The notes under the pieces were generated by a model. That model worked only from the letters and a program-made list of their open reading frames with translations, ran no database searches and was not told where the DNA came from. A DNA stretch of 64,000 nucleotides from positions 322,834,001 to 322,898,000 of the forward strand of contig OZ024741.1 in the NCBI GenBank assembly GCA_964016885.1. Reading direction: 5' to 3'. Positions 3,234 through 60,774 of the stretch are shown piece by piece; the first letter of the stretch is position 1, and each line of letters opens with the position of its first letter. A program made the position numbers and the translations under genes. The DNA is from Eledone cirrhosa. Its lineage: Eukaryota.

Positions 3234-3633
3234 ACAAAAAATTATTTGTTTGTATTTTCTATCAACGTTGTATCTGCTCATGTCACTTGTTTGGCTGTTA
3301 GAGCGATATTTTGACAGTCATAACGAAGTTTTTGACAGTTATAGTGAAGATCATGATGGGTATTTGGCCGGCCGAAGTACGTGGAATATTTATTACCAAG
3401 CAGCCCGTAACTACTAACAACGGTGAGTTTGTACCAATACATGACATTTATTTACAAATATGTTGATTGAAACATTGAAGGCGTATCTAGTTTCACTGAT
3501 TCGAAATGGAACCTGTAAACATTTATTCAGTAGATCGATACCACCCTATCGAGTCCAGCATTAGTGTTAAATGTAAACTAATACAAAAATGTTTGTAAAC
3601 TTACGTTACGATACTTAATAAATTGAGTTTCCT

Positions 3634-3665
<32 letters not shown>

Positions 3666-4259
3666 CTTTATCTATCTATCTATATCTGTACATTTTACCC
3701 CCTCTCTCTTTCTATCTCTCTTTCTTCCCTCTTTCACCCTCTCCTCTCTCACTCACACTCTATATACATCGCTATCTCTATTCCCTCAATCAGCACACAT
3801 TCTCTACTGTTTGTTCATCCTCATTCTTCTAGTCTCTCTCTCTCTCTCTCTCTGTAACATTCTGCTGCTCTGCCTGTCTTTCTCTGTCTCCCTCTCTTAC
3901 GCTTACTACCTATCTCTCCCACTCTCTTTACTCACCATTTTCTACCATCCACTCTTTGACATTCTATAACTTTTACAGTTTAGTCTTTCTCTAACCCCTC
4001 CATCTATCTCATTTTTTCTCTTTTTTTCTTTTTCCCCTTCTCATACTATTTTAATCGTTCTCTCTTTTACACATCTGGTACACCGCCTCCTTCTCACCCT
4101 TCTCACCCTCTCCCTCTTTCTCGTTCTTTTGTATCATTGTTTCTGTACCACTATTTGTCTCTCACATACTCACCGCTCTCTTTCTCTCTCTCTCTCTCGA
4201 CACACCCACATCATCACACACACACATCATATATATATACATATACATGTGTGTGCTTG

Positions 4260-5261: not shown

Positions 5262-5610
5262 TGGTGTTGCCCCCTCGTTATCGAGTATGGCTATCGCACG
5301 ATATACCATTATTAATAATTATTAATTAATTCTATCATGCAATGCTTGTGCGTGAATAAATTGTTTAAAGTGAGGAAAGACTGTGCACTGAGCCAATCCC
5401 ACTCTCTGAGCGACAGTAGCTATAACCCGAAAAGAAGAAAAGGTCAACATCATCGGTAACTACTGAGCCGCAGGTTTTATATCGGAGTTATCCCAGTTTC
5501 CTGAGTTGCCTTCTCCAAGAAGAATGCCTTGACAAAGGCTAGGGGTCCTTCACTCCCAGTGGTTTAACCGCGCGATCGGGTGTCCAGCCCGACTATTTCT
5601 ATGTCCCCGC
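5262..5610 (-). mobile_element. RTE-derived non-autonomous element in (TACA)n
   Basis: Reverse complement of 57730-58028. Contains the GGAGAAGGCAACTC motif typical of RTE 5' leaders. Confidence 0.65.
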
Positions 5611-5694
5611 GCATATACATACACATGCACCCATGTATATACACATATACATATACATAAATATGTACATGTGTATATACATATTTACACACTT

Positions 5695-5876
5695 TTGGAT
5701 GGCCGTTGACCATTATGAGTTCTTCCGCCCTTTGTCAGGTTTTGTTTTTTGTCCTGCGGGTATCCAAAATCACCCTCCTCACCAAGTAAACTTGGTGGGG
5801 TTGCCGGTTTAGTCGCCGACGACCCGACCATCCGACAGGTTGTACTGGGTTACATATTACCAGTAGCACTCAAGAG
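5695..5876 (-). mobile_element. 5' leader of RTE-derived element
   Basis: Homologous to 48724-48905, 57180-57350 and 63645-63835. Confidence 0.65.
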
Positions 5877-6009
5877 TACATACATACATACATACATACA
5901 TACATACATACATACATACATACATACATACATACATACATACATACATACATACATACATACATACATACATGCCAGAGATCCTAAATCAGTTTATTGC
6001 CAGAGATCC

Positions 6010-8467
6010 TAAATCAGTTTATCGCAGCTTCGGTGGCAAAAGCTCAATCCCTGTAAATGACACCCCTTCAAAAGAACAGGTTGGGAGCTACTGGAGATCT
6101 GTATGGGAAACGGATGACGGATTCAACAGACAAACTAATTGACTAAAAGAACTGGAACAGGACTACTGCCAACATGTCCAGACAAAACAATATGACATAG
6201 ATGGGTCAATACTGGAAACAGCTCTACAGAAAATGTCGAATAGGAAATCACCAGGCCCAGACCTCATTACAGGATACTGGTTGAAGAATTTCACTTTCTA
6301 TCGACAAGATCTCATACGGCTATTTACAGAAACCATTAAAGGCACACAAGAACTGCCCAGATGGTAATCAACTGCCACTACTGTCCTCATTCTCCAAAAT
6401 AGCCAAACCACCCTTGCTAAAAATTACCGCCCAATAGCCTGCCAAAACATCATGTATAAATTATATACTGGGTGCCTTAACCTGTTCTTACAGGATCACT
6501 GTGCTACCAACAACATCATAACACCTGAGCAAGATGGTGGAAAGAGGGAGGTGTGGGGTTGCATAGATCACCTACTAACTAATAAAATGATTCAAGAAAA
6601 AACAACAAAGAATCGCAGAAACGTGACTGTGGTGTGGCTGGACTATCAAAAAGCATTTGATAGTGTACCTCATGGGTGGATTGTTAAGGCTTTACAGTTA
6701 GCCAAAGTCCCACAACCACTGGTAGCTGCTGTTGAACGTCTGACCAAGAACTGGTACACCAATTTGATCCTTAGAGGTGAGAAGCAGCAAATTAAGACTG
6801 ATAGGATACATTACCAGGAGGGCATCTTTCACGGTGATAGCTTGTCAGTGCTACTCTTCGTTCTCTCACTAAATCCATTATCTTACCTACTCAGGAAACA
6901 AGGTGGACAAAGAAGTGGGTCCAGAAGTATCTCCCATCTTTTCTTTGTTGATGACCTGAAGTTGTATGGGCCAAATATCAATGACATCAAGAAACAATTG
7001 GACCTCATTACACAATTTTCAACAGACATCAAAATGAAATTTGGTGAGTCCAAATGTGCATATTTGGCAGTAAAACGTGGAAGAGCTGTGCCCTCCTCTA
7101 GAAATCTAGAGATGAACGGCCTGACAATACAACCTCTACAGTCAGGTGACAACTACAGATATCTTGGACAGGATGAGAATGTCAGATATGATGGACCCAT
7201 AAATAAGGAGAGAACCAGAACTGAATACCTCAGAAGAGTAAAGAAAATATGGTCATCAGAACTGTCAGCGTACAACAAATACATTGCCCACAATACTTAT
7301 GCTGTGCCAATTCTAACGCCAACATTTGGCCTTCTGAACTGGTCATTGCAAGAACTAAGTGAGATGGATGTTAGAACTCGCAAACTTCTCAGTGTTACTT
7401 TAACATCAATGGTGATGTGAATAGGCTATACTTCTCACGCAAGGAAGGTGGATTGGGTCTAAAGTCCATATTCACATCATATGAGACCCGGATAGTAACA
7501 CTGAAGCAACACCTTCAACAGAGGAAAAAGGTTAGAAACCATCTTGCCAGGTTTTTGAGCATGAAAAAGAATATATCATTAGAAAAGCCACTGATCTGGA
7601 GGAGAGATATGGAATAAAGCTTGATATAAATCTCTCACCCAGAGAAATCGGAAGATCCTATTCAATGTTCAAACAAGGTGAAAAAATTGACCAATTTACA
7701 GAAAAAGTTGTGCATGGATATTTGAGACGTAAAACACAGACCATAGAGAGGATAAACCACTCAAAAGGCCTGGCATGGAGTTCCGACAGGTTTATGACAT
7801 CACACCTTGAGGGATATCTCTATGCAATACAGGAACAAGAACTCCCTACCAAATATCTGCTGCACAAAAGGGGAGGGCCATCAGCTGACAATAAATGTAG
7901 GCTATGTAAAACAAAGATCGAGGATGTAAGCCACATTGTTGCCAGCTGCGAAAGAATGTCATCTCGCTACTACCTCCCATGAGACATGATGGGATAGCTA
8001 GAACCATCTGGAACACACTTCGGAAAACAAAATTAACAGCAAACGAGGAAGAATATATTGAGACAGATGGCACTAAGGAATACTGGTGGAACCTGAAAAT
8101 AAAAACTGCCACCAAATTAAAGCACAACCGGCCTGATATTGTTGTTTGGGACCACACATTGAAAGCGTGTTCTGTTGTGGAGATCAGCTGCCCACTTGAT
8201 GTAAACGTTGTCAGAAAAATACAGAAGAAGGAGGACATCTACGGACCATTGATGAGGAGTTTGCAAATCCAGTATCCAAGATACACCTTTAGCTTCATAC
8301 CCATCATTATTGGAGCTACGGGTTATATACCAACCCGTTTGGACCAAAGTATGACTGAACTTGGATTTGCGGACAAAGAGCGCAGCTCCCCAATTCATAG
8401 TCAACAAATGGCTGCGATAGCCGGTACCTTCAAAATTTGCAAAACATTCTTGCGATTCAAGGGATGA
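6010..8467 (+). pseudogene. Disrupted RT/REL ORF of the R4-like LINE
   Basis: ORF pieces 6452-7420, 7417-7617, 7665-7982 and 7979-8467 are joined by frameshifts. Upstream KSPGPD and NYRPIAC motifs are interrupted by stops. Confidence 0.88.
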
Positions 8468-28633: not shown

Positions 28634-31600
28634 TCATTATCTATAAAAGGCAGATTGTTGTTGCGTGTGCATGTTCCATGTTTATACATTTGCACAATTT
28701 CAAACCGATTCGACTTAAAGTCTGTAAGAATGTTGTAAATGGTCAACCTTAGGTCAACGACTATTTATTTCATTCAAACTCACCCACATTTACGGAAATA
28801 ATCGATAAAACTAAATACATGACGCTTATAAACCCACTCCTTAATAATTTCCTTTAGAGAGAGAGAAAAAATAAAGGAGTGAGCTAGAGAGTGAGAGACA
28901 GAGACAAACGTTACCAAACTACAATTATTCAAAAGCAACAGATAAATTTATTCAACAATCTCTTATATACGCTTAAAATCTTTATTTAAAACATCTATCA
29001 TTCAACTCACACACAATTACATTTTGTATATAACATATTTACGCGTTTATTGAGTGAAAAAAAAAACACATAGGGATTTTTAGCCAAACAACTTCAAATT
29101 GCTGACAGAAGCGCGCTTTCAACAAACTGTGAGTTATTTATTTGCCGTTCGTTCTCCCATTTTTCCCCCTGCTGAACGCAGACAGTTTTCAGCCTTATAC
29201 TTTCAAAGGCAATTTTGCTGTAGAAGTAACTTTCATTCTTTCTTTTTCACATAAAATGCCACCTAAAAAGTGAAGTCGCCTCGGTCGCCATACCGCGTCA
29301 GCGGCGGCGCAGAGGGCGATTACAGCAAACGAGTCCCCCGAGGAAACTGCTTTAAGACTTTCACAGAGCGCCTTATGTTCAGCGGAATGCAGAGCTGCTG
29401 AAAGTTTTCAACAACGCACCACACGCCTAGCCAAGATGGCTTCATACGACGCCTCGAGACGTGCTGCGATGTGCGATTCAGAGCGGGCGATACGTCATTC
29501 CACAAACACGCTTCTACTGCTGCTTCCATGTCTTCAGAGGGTCCGGAACAAAGGTTGACTCGCCTGAATAGAAACGCTGCTGCTACTGCTGCTTCCAGGG
29601 CTTCAGAGGGCCCGGAACAAAGGGCGGCTCGACTGACTAGAAACGCTGCGGCTACTGCTGCTTCCAGGGCTTTGGAAGGTTTGCAACGGCGGACGAATCG
29701 CCTTGCTAGGAACGCTGCGGCTATGACTGCTTCCATGGCTTCTGAAGATGCAGACGGGCGCTCCATTAAGATTGCAAGGGTGGCTTCTGCTACTGCTGCG
29801 AGAGCTTCCCACGACCCACAGGAGCAACATTCTACGTTGGAGCGGAACAGTCGACGACAAGAAGCTGCCCGCGGTGTGACGAGCTCCAACAGCCCATACT
29901 GGCACCTACGGGCTTTCAAGTATGAGCCCAACGTTAACTACTCGATGCGTGCCGACATAAATATAGGGGAAAAGCGCTTCAATTGCAAATTCTGCAATGC
30001 TAAAAAGTGGGCTGGGGAGCCACCTGCAATGTGCTGCTTAAACGGTAAGGTCAGCTTGCCCCCTCTTGGGGAACCCTAGAGCCTTTGAAGGAACTACTTA
30101 CTGGTTCTACCTCAAGGTCATCCAAATTCCTTCAACTCATCAGGAAGTACAATTGTGCGTTTCAAATGACTTCTTTCGGGGCTAACGTTGTCAGAGAAAG
30201 TGGTTGGATGCCTACTTTCAAGGTCCAGGGGCAGGTGTACCATCTTATTGGGTCTCTCCAGCCACTACAAAATTGCAAGCCTTCGTTCCTTCAAATTTAC
30301 TTCATGTCTAACTGCAGTAGGCAAGTTGATGCGCTGTTCGGCGTTATTCCAACACCTGCAAACACTGACGCTGACACTTTTGAAAGGGTCATGCTGCTCG
30401 GTCTTCAAAACATGCTTCATGAGCACAACAGTTATATACGCATTGGAAACAAATCCTTCACCAAACTTTACCATTGTCATCGATGCTAACAAAAGACCTT
30501 CTGAGGAGCACGCACGCCGTTATAACGCTCCTTCGTGCAATGAAGTGGCCGTAGTTATCCATGGTGAACAGCACAATAAGCAAGACATAGTTCTTCAAAG
30601 TCGTGACAGTGGTCTTCGACGTATTAATGAGACGCATCGTTCATACGACGCCCTGCAATATCCCCTTCTCTTTGCATACGGAGAAGACGGGTACCATTTC
30701 GGCATTCCTCAGCGCAAACCAAACGAGCCCACTGCTGCGACATCTAAAACTGTTTCATGTATGGCTTTATACTCATACCGCTTCATGACGAGGCCTAACG
30801 ATTTCAGCCCCCTGCACAGGTCACGGGAACTGTTTCACTTTCACCAGTTTGCAGTTGGAGTCGGTGGAGTCGGAGAGACTGTGCTTCATAAAATTGAATC
30901 AGAAGCAGCTGCGCTCAGACTCCTACATCCATTTGCGCGACGGCATCAGGAATGACACTGACCCCCGGAACATCGGCAAAATGTGCATTCTCCCCTCAAG
31001 CTATACGGGGGGGGGGGGGGGGAACATGCACGAGCGAATGCAGGACGCTATGACGTTCGTTCGGCATTATGGGCGCCCCGATTTATTCATCACGTTTACG
31101 TGTAACCCCAAGTGGGTTGAGGTTACGCGGGAACTTATCCCAGGGCAGCAGTACTGCCATCGGCATGATATTATTGCCAGAGTTTTCACGCAGAAGCTGG
31201 CTAAGCTAATTGATCTAATAAAAAAAGGGAAGGTTTTCGGGCCTGTTAGGTGCCACATGTATACTGTTGAGTGGCAGAAGAGAAGGTTGCCACACGCGCA
31301 CATTTTGGTTTGGTTGGTCACCAAAATAGACCCTACAGTTCTAGATGACGTCATCGCAGCGGAAATACCGGACCCGGTTGTTGACCGGCAGCTGTACAAC
31401 ATTGTGAAGGCACACATGGTGCACGGTCCGTGTGGTCCCGGTTTTCAACAGTTCTCTTCATGCCACAAGGATCATGTGTGCACTAAACGATACCCAAAGA
31501 AGTTTGTTGAGGAGACCCAGACCGGTGGCGACGGATACCCACTGTACAGACGAAGGCGGCCTGAGAACGGTGGATTCACTATGGGGTTTCGGGGTCATCA

Positions 31601-34600
31601 AGTTGATAATAGGTGGGTGGTCCCGTACTGTCCATTTCTAATGAAAACTTTCAACGCTCATATAAATGTGGAGTTCTGTCATTCAGTGAAGTCGATAAAG
31701 TACATATGTAAATATGTTAACAAGGGTTCCGACGCTGCCATGTTCGGCCTTCAAAACGACAATAGCAGGGACGAGGTCTCAGAGTACTTGGCAGGTCGAT
31801 ATATCAGCAGTGGTGAAGCTTTTTGGCGGATATTTGGGTTTCCACTTCACCAAAGGCACCCCGCCATCATACAAGTAGTGGTTCATTTGGAAAACGGCCA
31901 GCGGGCTTACTTTACTGAACAGACTGCTGCTCATTTGGCGGCCAATCCAAAGAAACAACTTTGACTGTTTTTTTTACGCTTTGCCAACTTGACACATTTG
32001 CAAAAACACTTTCATATCCTCAGGTCCCGTCCTACTACGTATGGTCAAACAACACTTGGGTGCGTTGGAAGTCAGGTCAGGATGTTGAAGGACATCCTGG
32101 TGTCAAGTTTGACAGTTGTCTAGGAAGAGTGTACACTGTACCTCCCAACCAGCATCAGTGTTTTCACCTGCGCATTCTCCTCCATGAGGTTTTTGGCCCA
32201 CAAAGCTTTCGAGACATAAGAACTGTTGACGGTGAATTATGTGATACTTTCCGGGAAGCCTGCTTTAGGCGTGGCCTTTTGGAGGATGATTCACAATGGG
32301 GCGCCACTATGGCAGAGGGTGTTTTGTTGAAATCTCCTAAAAGACTAAGATCGCTTTTCGCTATTCTACTCCTATGGTGCGACTTGGGTGATCCGGCCTC
32401 TTTATGGCTTAGCTACAAAGATTACATCTCTGAAGATTTCCTGCGTCACGCTCAGTTGCTAAACCCATCGATAGAGGTCGGGTACAGTGACCTCATTTAC
32501 AACAGGGCGCTGCTTGAAAACGAAGATACTGTTCTCGATATGGGCGGTAGTGCGTTGGCGGTGTATGGCCTACCTACAACAAACCGGGAAGGCGCAAACA
32601 CTCTGTCTTCGGATTTGCTGCGTGAGACATCTTATAATGTTGACGAGCTTGCCCAGTACATAGCGGAGAATGAGCCAAAGCTCCTTCCAGAACAGAAATT
32701 CGCTTACAACTCCGTTGTTAATTCTGTCTGGGGCAAAGCTGGCGGGATTTTTTTCCTGGACGCTCCTGGGGGACTGGGAAAACTTTTGTCACCAAATTAA
32801 TATTAGCTGAGATTAGGCGAACAGAAGGCATTGCTTTAGCTGTGGAATCATCTGGAATTGCGGCTACTTTGTTGCCGGGCGGCAGGACAGCTCATTCCTA
32901 TTTCGCTTGACTTAGCGAAGACTGAGACACCCACTTGCAACATCAGTAAGAGCTCCGATCAAAGAGAAGTGTTCAGACGATGCAAGCTTATCGTTTGGGA
33001 CGAATGCACGATGGCCCACAGAGGTGCTCTTGAGGCGCTAGATAGAACTCTGAGAGACATCAAAGACTCTACGGCTCCCATGGGAGGCATAACACTTTTT
33101 CTTTCAGGGGACTTCAGGCAAACGCTTCCCGTTATTCCCAAGGGGACTAGAGCTGATGCAGTACGTGCGTGTCTTAAGTCATCCGCATCGTGGCCCCTGG
33201 TGAAGACTCTGAAACTTCACACTAACATGCGTGCTCATATGCGAGGTGATATCACATCAGCAGCATTTTCTCACACCCTCCTTGCACTTGGCGATGGCAA
33301 AACGCCCGGGGATGAAAAAGGTAATATTGCCATCGACTCACTTTGTACCGTTGTTAGTACGCCTTCTGATCTCAGGGATGCAGTGTTCCCAGATGTCCAA
33401 GCAAATTATCAGAATATGGATTGGCTTGCCCAAAGGGCTATTCTAGCCCCGAGGAATAAAACTGTTAACCATATTAATGATCAAATGCTAAAACTCATTC
33501 CTGGGGATGGCTACGTATATAAGTCTATCGATAGAACTCCTGACCCCGAGGACGTCATCAACTATCCAATAGAGGTACTAAATTCATTTGAGCCCCCCGG
33601 ATTACCCCCACACATTTTGAAACTTAAAGTTGGTGCCCCTATAATGGTCATTCGAAATTTGGTTCCGCCGAAACAATGCAATGGCACACGTTTGGTCGTT
33701 AAGTCCTTAGCTTCCAATCTGATAGAGGCCACGATAATCACAGGGTGCGGTCGGGGCAAGGTTGTGCTCATACCGAGGATGCATCTTTTCCCATCAAGAG
33801 CAGACCTACCTTTCACATTTCGGAGGTCCCAGTTCCCGGTCAGGCCATGCTTCGCAATGTCAATTAACAAAGCGCAGGGACAAACAGTGTCTGTCGCGGG
33901 AATACATTTGGGGGAGCCGTGTTTCTTTCATGGTCAGCTTTACGTTGGCTGCTCGCGTGTCGGCAGCAAGAGTGATGATTTCGCGTTCGTTCCGCAAGGA
34001 AAAATAAAAAATATTGTGTACAAGGAGGTTTTATAGGATTACCTCGATTCCTAATTTTATAACTTTTTAATTTTTTTATTTTTTGCCCTTTCGTGAGTAC
34101 TTTCTAAGTAGGTTAACCTTTACTGCAGTGCACTGGACACTCCCCACCATCTGCCGTACAAAGGCTGATTCTCGCGGCGTTACAAAGCTTCATTGCAACT
34201 CCGACCCTACCCAAATATCAGCTGTTGCTCCTCACCAACCCCCGTTTGGTGGGCCTCGGAGGACCGTGGGCAGGTTAGTATTTCACCTCCGTACGACTCT
34301 CAAAGGGTGAACAATGCTTTAATGACAGGATTTCCATTTGTAGGCGGTTCCCTGCAATTACTTCACACTTTACCAACACCTGGCCTCCGCTCAGCTCTAT
34401 TTCGCTCCCTCTGTCGGCACAGCAGCAGGCTAATCTTCTATGTCCGACGTACATGATGCACCAACCATACAATGACCCCTCTTCCTTTTTGGGGGTTGTC
34501 ATAATTCGACAATATTTTCAGGCCCCTGTTTGCGGTTCCCTCAATCCACCCCCTCCGCCGTTAAAACATGTCATGCAGAACAACTCCATCGCAGTTCTGT

Positions 34601-34856
34601 TGTTCGGCTGGCATCGTCTATGCGCGTGTTGCGCAAGTACTGTGAAACAATAAATTTGAACACTTCTTTGCACAGAGATAATATTAATAGGCGAAACTAC
34701 AATTGTCACTGCTGGTGCAGCTCCTGCTTCGGCAGTACAGGTTTGCAATTCATTCAACCAGTGCCTGGCAGACAAAAAAATGCTGCCATAAAATGGGTGG
34801 TGCAACCTAACTTTGGTAACTTACTGACCCCGAGCAATGCCGGGCTTTAATGCTAG
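28634..34856 (+). mobile_element. Helitron (autonomous-type, decayed)
   Basis: 5' TC start after (TA)n (28634 or 28640). 3' hairpin CCCGAGCAATGCCGGG (34828-34844) followed by CTAG then T. Internal Rep-helicase ORF. Confidence 0.92.
29256..34036 (+). pseudogene. Helitron Rep/helicase (HUH endonuclease plus Pif1-family helicase), frameshifted
   Basis: Zn finger CKFC..CCLNGKV; Rep motifs FITFTCNPKW, VEWQKRRLPHAHIL, KYICKYVNKG; helicase motifs DAPGG.GK, VWDE, GDFRQTLP, AMSINKAQGQT, HGQLYVGCSRV. Several stops and frameshifts. Confidence 0.93.
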
Positions 34857-34880
34857 TATATATATATATATATATATATA

Positions 34881-35488
34881 TAATTCTTTCCATTGGAAAT
34901 TCTCTGTATTTCCAATCTTTTGATTAGTGAAACCGTCGGTAACGGCAATAGAACAGGTAAATATTTAAATCGTTTTTTAATTTAGTTAAAAGATTGTTTG
35001 ATGATTACTTGTTCCGCTCATTTTAATAGTTCTGGTATCTCAAATTAGTACCATCGAACCACGGCTATTATAAACACCATGCATATTTCTGTAGGTACTT
35101 AGTGCCTGTTGGAATATCCATACCCTTTTAAATTTAATTTCCTATATGTAGAGAACAAAACGTTGTATCGCGCTGCTATTTTTAGCGGTATGATCAACAA
35201 GTTTATAATATCCCGCTTTTACTTATGGCCTATTTTTGTGTGTGGGTCACTTTAACGGCTTGACCCCATGCAACGGGTAGGAAGCGATATATTCTGTTAC
35301 TATGAGGCTTTATACCCTTATAGTATGGAAATAGCTGTCTGAAGATCTAATTCTTTCCATTGGAAATTCTCTGAATTTCCAATCTTTTGATTAGTGAAAC
35401 CGTCGGTAACGGCAATAGAACAGGTGAATATTTAAATCGTTTTTTAATTTATTTAAAAGATTGTCTGATGATTACTTGTTCCGGTCAG

Positions 35489-35490
<2 letters not shown>
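34881..35490 (+). mobile_element. Terminally redundant 467-nt HHR unit (family J; retrozyme-like)
   Basis: 34881-35014 is repeated at 35348-35483. No credible ORF. (TA)n on both sides. Confidence 0.8.
35334..35413 (+). ncRNA. Type I hammerhead with extended stem II (family J)
   Basis: GCTGT-CTGAAGA-TCTAAT..ATTGGAAATT ctctg AATTTCCAAT..ATTAGT-GAAA-CCGTCGG-TA-ACGGC. Confidence 0.85.
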
Positions 35491-35523
<33 letters not shown>

Positions 35524-35899: not shown

Positions 35900-38130
35900 A
35901 GTATATCAACTATTTTATATATCTCAACTGTATGGTATATCCCAATTGTGTGGTATATCTCTACTGTGTAGTATATCTCAGCTATGTGATATATCTCAGA
36001 TGTGTGGTATATCCCAACTGTGTAATATATCTCTACTGTGTGATATATCTCTACTGTGTGATATATCTCTACTGTGTGATATATCTCAACTGTGTGGTAT
36101 ATCTACTGAGTGGTATATCTCAACTGTCTGATATATCTCAGCTGTGTGATATACCTCAGCTGTGTGGTATATCTCTACTATGTGATATACCTCAACTGTG
36201 TGGTATATCTCAACTGTGTGGTATATCTCAACTGTGTGGTTATATCTCAACTGTGTGGTTATATCTCTACTGTGTGGTATATCTCAACTGTGTGGTATAT
36301 CTCAACTGTGTGGTATATCTCAACTGTGTGGTATATCTCAACTGTGTGGTATATCTCGACTGTGTGGTATATCTCAACTGTGTGGTATATCTCAACTGTG
36401 TGGTATATCTCGACTGTGTGGTATATCTCGACTGTGTGGTATATCTCGACTGTGTGGTATATCTCGACTGTGTGGTATATCTCTACTGTGTAGTATATCT
36501 CTACTGTGTGGTATATCTCTACTGCGTGTTATATCTCAGATGTGTGGTATATCTCAGCTGTGTGATATATCTCAACTGCGTGGTATATCTCAAATGCGTG
36601 GTATATCTCAAATGCGTGGTATATCTCAAATGCGTGGTATATCTCAACTGTGTGGTATATCTCAACTGTGTGGTATATCTCAACTGTGTGGTATATCTCA
36701 ACTGTGTGGTATATCTCTACTGTATGATATATCTCAGCTGTGTGGTATATCTCTACTTTCTGGTATATCTCAGCAGTGTGGTATATATCAACTTTGTAAT
36801 ATATCTCAACTGTGTGATATATCTATTGTGTGGTATATCTCTACTGTGTGGTATATATCTACTGTGTGATATATCTCAGCTGTGTGTATATATCACTGTG
36901 TGATATATCTAACTGTGTGGTATATATCAGCTGTGTGATATATCTCAGCTGTGTGGTATATCTCAACTGTGTAATATATCTCAAATGTGTGGTATATCTC
37001 TACTGTGTGGTATATCTCTACTGTGTGGTATATCTCTGCTGTGTGGTATATCTCTACTGCGTGATATATATTAGCAGTGTGGTATATCTTAGTGGTGTGG
37101 TATATCTCAACTGTGTGGTATATCTCTACTGTGTGGTATATCTCAGCTATGTGATATATCTCAGCTATGTGATATATCTCTACTGTGTGATATATCTCAA
37201 CCGTGTGGTATATTTTAGTAGTGCGGTATATATCAACTGTGTGATATATCTCTACTGTATAATATATCCACTGTGTGGTATATATCTACTATGTGGTATA
37301 TCTCAGCTGTGTGGTATATCTCAGTTGTGTGGTATATCTCAACTGTATAATATATCTACTGTGTGGTATATCTCAGCTGTGTTGTATATCTCAGCTGTAT
37401 GGTATATCTCAGCTATGTGGTATATCTCAGCTATGTGGTATATCTCAGCTATGTGGTATATCTCAGCTATGTGGTATATCTCAGCTATGTGGTATATCTC
37501 AGCTATGTGGTATATCTCAGCTATGTGGTATATCTCAGCTATGTGGTATATCTCAGCTATGTGGTATATCTCAGCTGTATGGTATATCTCAGCTGTATCG
37601 TATATCTCAGCTGTGTGGTATATCTCAGCTGTGTGGTATATCTCAGCTGTGCGATATATCTCAGCTGTGTGGTATATCTCAGCTATGTGGTATATCTCAG
37701 CTATGTGGTATATCTCAGCTGTGTGGTATATCTCAGCTGTGTGGTATATCTCAGCTGTGTGGTATATCTCAGCTGTGTGGTATATCTCAGCTGTGTGGTA
37801 TATCTCAGCTGTGTGGTATATCTCAGCTGTGCGATATATCTCAGCTGTGCGATATATCTCAGCTGTGCGGTATATCTCAGCTGTGCGGTATATCTCAGCT
37901 ATGTGGTATATCTCAGCTGTGTGGTATATCTCAGCTGTGTGGTATATCTCAGCTGTGTGGTATATCTCAGCTGTGTGGTATATCTCAGCTGTGTGGTATA
38001 TCTCTACTGTGTGGTATATCTCAACTGTGTGGTATATCTCAACTGCGTGGTACATATCAGCTGTGTGATATATGTCAGCTGTGCCTTATTTCTCAACTAT
38101 GCGTGGTATCTAAACTGTGTGGTATATCAC
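35900..38130. repeat. 18-bp minisatellite (GTGGTATATCTCAGCTGT)n
   Basis: Over 100 units in variant blocks. Confidence 0.97.
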
Positions 38131-40797: not shown

Positions 40798-40870
40798 AAC
40801 GCGTGTTGGTGTAATGGCAACACATTGGTCCGATAAACCAAAGATGCGGGTACGTGTCCCATTTGCGTCA
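40798..40870 (+). tRNA. tRNA-like pseudogene or SINE head (anticodon GAT)
   Basis: D arm GTGT aatggca ACAC; anticodon arm TTGGT ccgataa ACCAA; T arm and acceptor stem degenerate. Confidence 0.45.
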
Positions 40871-60169: not shown

Positions 60170-60500
60170 CAAGATAGATCAGCCTCTGTATCTCATTTCT
60201 TTCCATTCTATTATTAATGGGGCGCTCAAATCGTTTAATAAAGAGGACTTCTGTGCTTCTCAGGGTGTCTATACTGCGTTCAGTAGCCAAGGTGTTGGTG
60301 GTTATTGTTTTGCATTTGAGCATATGTTTGTGGAACGATGATGTGATGTGTTCTTTTATTCAGAGGTGTCAAATAGTCAAATAGTGCTGCTGCTGTAGAA
60401 TTGGCTGCACTTGCCACATTCCAACCTGTACACCACGTAGGCACACAAGCAATAATTAGTGCTGTGGGAAGGGGCAATTAGTTAGAGTGCATGTGTTCTT
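60170..60500 (-). pseudogene. Penelope-like GIY-YIG endonuclease remnant
   Basis: Across frameshifts: CTLTNCP..NYCLCAYVVYRLECGKCSQFY..ST..IKEH..FHKH..LATE..LRSTEVLFIKRFERPINNRME. Confidence 0.75.
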
Positions 60501-60774
60501 CTCGTTGATTATTAGCTGAGTTGTGGCATCCTAAAGAAGCAACTGTCGTCTGGGCTGGTCCATCTTCTGGGTTTTGAGTCCCACCGTGGGATGGAGAAAG
60601 AGCGTGGGTAGCCACTGGTTTTTAACACCCAGCGGTACTGTTTGATGAAGCGTCACAGCATCTGTCGCGTATGGGCGCAGTTTCACTGTTTATGTACTCA
60701 CTTATCGAGTTGTACTCACTTATCGAGGAGAGCAGATTTGTAGTGGATGAAAAGGTCTCTGCAGTAGAAATAGG

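Follow-up and report, generated by a model that had tools for sequence, protein, structure and literature searches.

Organization of the Hammerhead Element in the Window

The window, i.e., the whole 64,000-nt stretch of Eledone cirrhosa contig OZ024741.1 analyzed here, contains two equivalent GUA sites (A17 at 34941 and 35408) spaced by 467 nt, as the earlier note had stated. They lie within a 143-nt repeat (34881–35023 versus 35348–35490; 137 of 143 nt identical). The features of the element and its borders are as follows:

34857..34882, no strand: upstream (TA)13 target tract, bordering on a Helitron at its CTAG 3' end
34881..34946, + strand: 5'-truncated hammerhead half, with most of helix II, GAAA, helix III, GUA at 34941 and the helix I 3' strand
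34942..35408, + strand: unit from cleavage site to cleavage site, 467 nt, non-coding, GC 35%
34951..35015, + strand: post-cleavage-site hairpin, first copy, immediately 5' of start site A
35018..35023, + strand: site A, internal copy (fixed end, putative reverse-transcription start), 82 nt past the cleavage site
35121..35130, + strand: site B (fixed end, putative reverse-transcription start), ~107 nt past site A
35334..35413, + strand: whole type I hammerhead, with 5-bp helix I, CUGAAGA, extended helix II and GUA at 35408
35418..35482, + strand: post-cleavage-site hairpin, second copy
35485..35490, + strand: 3' terminus of the inserted copy, at site A
35490..35519, no strand: downstream (TA)15 target tract

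Most of the initial description was borne out. The upstream hammerhead begins within helix II and is devoid of the helix I 5' strand and of CUGAAGA, the (TA)n flanks were confirmed ((TA)13 before and (TA)15 after the element), and the hairpin noted 3' of the cleavage site is present in the predicted fold. A credible ORF is absent, the longest ATG ORF on both strands of the circularized 467-nt unit being 24 aa. The copy was also proposed to be a 1.3-mer cDNA of a self-cleaving monomer; its identity as a retrozyme and a more-than-unit cDNA are well supported, but it may be a collapsed longer array instead of an original 1.3-mer. Release of a 467-nt RNA from it would need the downstream core to act on the upstream half-site via helix III. 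The rating of this unit as the best candidate does not hold for the window copy, which is one-armed, ~2% diverged and carries a single whole ribozyme; the young 457-nt arrays described below are better ones. The window copy is an ordinary, older member of an abundant repeat. Three contig sets of one sample are available at the locus, in which family variants and tandem joints are visible, possibly not independently of the assembly; an empty-site allele was not found in these three sets, the depth of which is unusable as copy number.

Other elements are scattered over the window. A Helitron (28634–34856) with a TC start, a hairpin, a CTAG end and broken Rep/PIF1 frames (Pfam) lies within a TA tract, with its 3' end (34856) next to the upstream (TA)n of the hammerhead element. 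An 18-bp minisatellite of ~123 copies occupies positions 35918–38128, LINE-type RT and zf-RVT pieces 6368–7982, a tRNA-like Rfam match 40800–40870, and ORF fragments of Penelope-like elements (PLEs) 60195–60763 on the minus strand. Hammerhead-like motifs of unrelated repeat families are found at 1366(-), 1706, 4478, 13877, 38983, 46084(-), 55116(-), and 55272.

Abundance and Diversity of the Clan

Searches were run genome-wide over the 3.0-Gb assembly. A DNA search returned 2,626 first-look candidates, 40 of which were scored. The exact whole core of the window-copy subfamily gave 124 matches, the core of a sister subfamily with G-C at the base of helix II 143 and the clan cleavage-site motif 1,553, versus 0 for the reversed control in each case. 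The ribozyme core is kept across subfamilies that are ~70% alike. A short-helix-II pattern had 17 matches, mostly deletion variants of the clan, and a DNA query spanning site A to site B had 42, all near-identical and of the family type. In sister subfamilies L247–L249, L242, and L243, the cleavage triplet GUC replaces GUA. The copies end at sites inside the tandem unit and show no LTR layout. The clan is a new family within the known class of non-LTR retrozymes, and the identification made by the earlier note holds.

Predicted Fold of the Hammerhead

The type I hammerhead core (CUGANGA, GAAA, UH) and the three helices are all present, in the order CUGAAGA...GAAA...GUA in the downstream hammerhead, where helix I is GCUGU/ACGGC (5 bp), helix II consists of 6 bp, an internal loop and 11 bp, and helix III, ACC-GUC-GGU, is only 3 bp long and self-complementary. 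Position 10.1-11.1 is U·U throughout the window-copy subfamily, in contrast to the usual G-C. The downstream ribozyme had been called complete and canonical: its core and helices are complete, but the U·U opens helix II and Rfam found no hammerhead in the window at the gathering score, its only match there being the tRNA-like one at 40800. The pairing probability predicted for helix III is 0.02 and that for helix I falls to ~0.01 in longer context; thus, the active fold of the monomer is not the predicted ground state. The circular fold of the 467-nt unit has z = -6.7 against 100 shuffles. In an alignment of 27 chosen sequences, 91% of cells are paired, and two-sided changes across subfamilies amount to 29 cells versus 9.2 in shuffled data, mainly in helices I and II, a test inflated by relatedness. 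In the same sequences, the post-cleavage-site hairpin varies mostly via G-U.

A U·U at the base of helix II is reported to weaken cleavage in axolotl, where HHR_Amex2 has U·U at the same place and its cleavage is weak in the monomer and good in the dimer (PMC7229834). In the study of Li et al. (2026; 10.64898/2026.07.22.740005), cleavage is described for only one of nine dimers. Back-junction reads, which the earlier note had proposed as a check, would be no proof of a circle, since a re-ligated junction is identical to the genomic tandem junction.

Insertion Ends, Target and Copy Length

We mapped 108 loci (30 best matches, 77 more from the 100 core matches listed and one from the DNA search), a sample biased toward ribozyme-bearing copies, from which L108 was left out as it occupies the same place as L027. 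Fixed 3' ends were found in 103 of the 108 loci: site A (window 35023/35490) accounts for 82 and site B (~35130) for 21. Site A is located 82 nt and site B ~189 nt past the cleavage site, which means that synthesis of the ribozyme-bearing copies passed through an intact site. Site B serves 21/108 forward arms and most inverted arms. A (TA)4 or longer tract lies at most 40 nt downstream in 99/108 loci. The 5' ends are scattered. These ends suggest that two start sites of reverse transcription, and not the ribozyme, fix the limits of the insertions, a feature missed by the earlier note. Target-site duplications are unreadable inside (TA)n.

Cleavage-defined 5' ends were considered as the main class and rejected, as there is no spike at the cleavage site and, among TA-joined ends only, 2–3 of ~10 are compatible with it. 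In 11/108 loci, the 5' ends cluster at the TATTATAAA motif (unit positions 42–49, the equivalent of window 35065–35072), alike in first and second rounds; microhomology with (TA)n is likely involved.

The genome search for multimers suggested at the outset was positive, counter to the refuting case that copies never exceed one unit: 52/108 copies exceed 1.05 units, and arrays of up to 19 units occur in a sister subfamily. At least two whole cores in tandem are present in 10/108 loci, and the longest copy of the window subfamily has 3.07 units. The pairs L016/L019 and L024/L027 are segmental duplicates with flanks in common; one whole unit distinguishes L024 from L027, which shows that unit number changes in arrays after insertion, by gain or loss. 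A SINE-like repeat of ~180 nt occurs in L032 (oriented 3616–3803) and L104 (oriented 3700–3877), i.e., in two different subfamilies at the same unit position (~window 35209), which hints at a preferred target.

Two-Armed Insertions and Shared Variants

An inverted 5' arm was detected in 41/108 loci. For arm and allele comparisons, the duplicates L108, L019, and L024 were left out, leaving 39 two-armed loci, in 10 of which an end lies at neither site A nor site B. Where both ends are at a fixed site, the arms by our own tally combine A and B in 27/29 loci (binomial p 7e-7) and A and A in the other two. Fifteen loci have an inverted arm that ends at a fixed site, and in none of them is one arm nested within the other; a simple fold-back is thereby excluded. 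Inspection lent no support to the idea that the B arm stalls at site A.

The repeats within a locus share variants. At polymorphic sites, they disagree in 10% of comparisons when in tandem (65/649) and in 9% when inverted (61/679), versus 43–44% expected. Outside these sites, they differ by 5–5.6%, twice the median private divergence (2.7%). Shared rare alleles per kb number 2.8 for tandem repeats (without L092) and 2.5 for inverted ones versus 0.53 and 0.45 in controls, i.e., ~5x the level of the nearest same-subfamily controls, a figure that leaves out the outlier L092 (30/52 shared alleles). Directional differences between tandem repeats were too few to read. Gene conversion, or a pair of transcripts made from a single source locus, can alternatively give rise to the shared variants.

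Young 457-nt Sister Subfamily

The 457-nt sister subfamily is 77% identical to the window subfamily and has 312 exact motif matches. At C1:156.43 Mb, it forms a 13-kb insertion flanked by TA tracts, in which 19 units ending at site A and nine ending at site B are arranged head to head, with six non-recurrent changes in ~12.9 kb. Variants 121T and 413G are fixed in all 28 units of both arms. The 121T pattern has 31 matches genome-wide, 29 in this array and two single ones elsewhere; it was not found in any other assembled array. By contrast with the fixed variants, 194G occurs in 6/28 units, on both arms and with no period, and among the 26 fetched loci it is seen only here. Repeated copying of a single circular template would be expected to produce such a scatter. 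Possible alternatives are linear source arrays that the assembly lacks, jumps between templates, conversion, or errors in assembly.

Other arrays of the subfamily behave similarly. L260 has at least 19 units in the part of the array fetched; L260, L252, L246, L250, and L253 each possess an array-wide variant of their own, and L254, L255, and L259 are of the common type. In the 19+9 array, L246, L250, and L252, variants are fixed over both opposite arms. Among the 26 loci examined, all 13 two-armed ones combine sites A and B. The strongest evidence for rolling-circle copying comes from a subfamily 77% identical to that of the window, not from the window subfamily itself, the longest copy of which is the 3.07-unit one.

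Search for a Penelope-Like Partner

An ORF encoding RT and GIY-YIG domains, the mark of an autonomous EN+ PLE, is absent from the unit, and comparison with eight PLE proteins revealed no ORF remnant in it. Constant attachment of the unit to a PLE ORF, named in the earlier note as a finding that would refute it, was not seen: the unit runs into one in 0/109 fetched loci, and PLE ORF pieces, none continuous with the unit, are found nearby in 7/109. The genome contains 10,595 GIY-YIG candidates, of which 150 were scored; in 50 GIY-YIG loci, no homology to the 467-nt unit was found, a pLTR homologue included, nor an autonomous element with its sequence, for which the earlier note had proposed a search. 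A search for the partner via common flanks was discarded, as the shared flanks of 30 loci proved to be other abundant repeats among the matches listed. The Neptune ORF at L183 was likewise rejected as a carrier of the unit, for it is equipped with a separate pLTR, a TA tract precedes the unit, and the two are neighboring insertions in one shared TA tract.

Judging by the CxxC linker, following PMC8557442, the PLEs examined appear to be mostly of the Neptune type. One of them, L182, represents a Neptune-like family with a 938-aa frame and matches to RVT_1 and GIY-YIG. The hammerhead of this family is degenerate; its copies end in (TA)n at either of two sites, spaced by 63 nt, and the two are combined in 4/4 two-armed loci. 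At L193 (oriented 5420–6100), a tandem hammerhead repeat of ~450 nt lies in a TA tract after a Neptune-like element.

Proposed Model of Retrozyme Movement and Alternative Explanations

The patterns observed in the genome are the dispersal of the copies, their targeting of TA tracts, the use of two fixed ends with one for each arm, and more-than-unit copies with common variants. On sequence grounds, we consider it probable that the window repeat is a non-LTR retrozyme moved in trans by a PLE RT/GIY-YIG protein, likely via a unit-length RNA circle; the identity of the protein as well as cleavage, ligation, the circular template and a dimer are what we infer from these patterns. Transcripts of multi-unit copies would be cut at each GUA, probably by ribozymes paired through the self-complementary helix III, and the cleaved monomer would be ligated into a circle. 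As suggested by the insertion ends, the protein would nick both strands of the palindromic (TA)n tract and reverse transcription would be primed at the fixed sites A and B by TTT/TA microhomology. The genomic pattern shows copying past the intact cleavage site for less than one to at least 19 rounds and, where both primers are extended, a head-to-head junction of two cDNAs, of which one terminates at A and its counterpart at B. On this model, the window copy is a one-armed, site-A product of 1.3 units, or a remnant.

A further and more tentative proposal, which we hold to have slightly less than an even chance, is that a protein dimer holds one circle at two sites and runs two rolling-circle reverse transcriptions from both (TA)n nicks, so that the insertions would record the full retrozyme/PLE mechanism. 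On this reading, 194G would be a repeated misreading of a single nucleotide, and, if it is true, PLE tails, inversions and tandems are explained by one model. The purified protein of an anole PLE, a predicted dimer, nicks both strands, extends them, and starts at two internal sites, which define the tail (PMC11167929). Circles as templates have been proposed (PMC4209133, PMC7229834). Head-to-head inversions have been ascribed to self-priming on an antisense template (PMC3846280); for the arms described here, we favor two separate primings.

The template could instead be linear, in the form of uncut read-through transcripts or RT jumps between identical RNAs, with a slow or vestigial ribozyme. 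For the anole PLE in vitro, insertion has no need of ribozyme cleavage and uncut RNA is the main template (PMC11167929); moreover, the active fold is weak in prediction and most copies of the window subfamily have fewer than two units. Against this, the 121T of the 19+9 array is in no other assembled array, the multimers (this one, L260, L252, L246, L250, and L253) each have a fixed variant of their own, the scattered 194G is by inspection not in register between the arms, as copying of a linear array requires, and the core is retained across subfamilies ~70% alike. We regard a linear template as rather unlikely. Still less probable is that short pLTR-derived copies insert and then expand by unequal crossing-over and gene conversion, a satellite model discussed in Li et al. 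(2026; 10.64898/2026.07.22.740005). Units 17–18 of the 19+9 array have a deletion in common and units 7–8 share 194G, and conversion could account for the shared rare alleles; however, the arrays are dispersed and very young (the six changes in ~12.9 kb), terminate exactly at site A or B within (TA)n, and in four loci (the 19+9 array, L246, L250, and L252) have variants fixed over opposite arms.

The unit might also be the terminal repeat of an autonomous PLE yet to be found, its copies being truncated pieces. Its anatomy matches PLE ends, and the survey of PLEs was partial (150 scored of 10,595). Yet, the unit closes head to tail with neither an ORF nor an ORF remnant, PLE ORF pieces are near 7/109 loci with none continuous with the unit, and at L183 the Neptune ORF comes with a separate pLTR and a TA tract precedes the unit. 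We regard this explanation as very improbable. A local duplication or chance motif, for which the missing Rfam match in the window could be cited, is already refuted by the 1,553 exact clan motifs versus 0 in the control and by the dispersal of the copies among unrelated flanks. Overall, we retain as the preferred reading a retrozyme moved in trans, probably through RNA circles.

Comparison With Known Systems

The movement of animal retrozymes and the tandem and inverted insertion of PLEs are presented as open questions, and rolling-circle copying as proposed but not demonstrated, in the literature consulted (PMC7229834, 10.64898/2026.07.22.740005, PMC8557442). Mobilization of retrozymes by PLEs from circles has been put forward (PMC7229834, 10.64898/2026.07.22.740005), and circular RNA has reportedly been demonstrated for the retrozymes of coral, mussel and axolotl (PMC7229834). 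A report of footprints of the clan type was not found in openly accessible main texts. The exact start sites, the target and the one-site-per-arm rule shared with an RT-encoding element, together with the very young arrays, make the model directly testable. The value of the finding lies in these footprints of the clan, the window copy itself being unremarkable.

Like the metazoan non-LTR retrozymes described so far, the clan has a tandem unit that is non-coding, low in GC, and provided with a single type I hammerhead (PMC7229834, 10.64898/2026.07.22.740005), ranges from monomers to multimers, and shares its genome with PLEs. The U·U at the base of helix II is likewise found in axolotl HHR_Amex2 (PMC7229834). 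The 467-nt unit is slightly above the 150–450 bp given in PMC7229834 and within the 51–972 bp of Li et al. (10.64898/2026.07.22.740005). Two or more successive units carrying whole ribozymes, which Li et al. take as the sign of an active element, are present in the family, but not in the window copy. Unlike those retrozymes, the clan has a very long helix II, and its (TA)n targeting, fixed start sites and two-armed insertions are absent from the main-text retrozyme descriptions.

The features of PLE-type insertion, i.e., 5' truncation, partial tandem, inverted 5' arm, one-end tail and microsatellite target, are all present in the clan. Chlamys PLEs (MRC1) are similarly non-autonomous and multicopy, but their group is reported to have no canonical hammerheads (PMC8557442, PMC3846280, PMC4209133). 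The closest parallels are with EN+ Neptune/Poseidon PLEs, for which 5' truncation, partial tandems, an inverted 5' arm and a microsatellite bias are described (PMC8557442, PMC3846280, PMC4209133), as well as an optional one-end tail, two internal RT start sites and a near-end hammerhead (PMC8557442, PMC3846280, PMC4209133, PMC11167929). One-end tails of inverted repeats have long been known among these elements (PMC3846280, PMC8557442); unlike the EN+ PLEs, as they are described there, the clan unit carries no ORF, and its tail measures ~107 nt versus 30–40 in PLEs.
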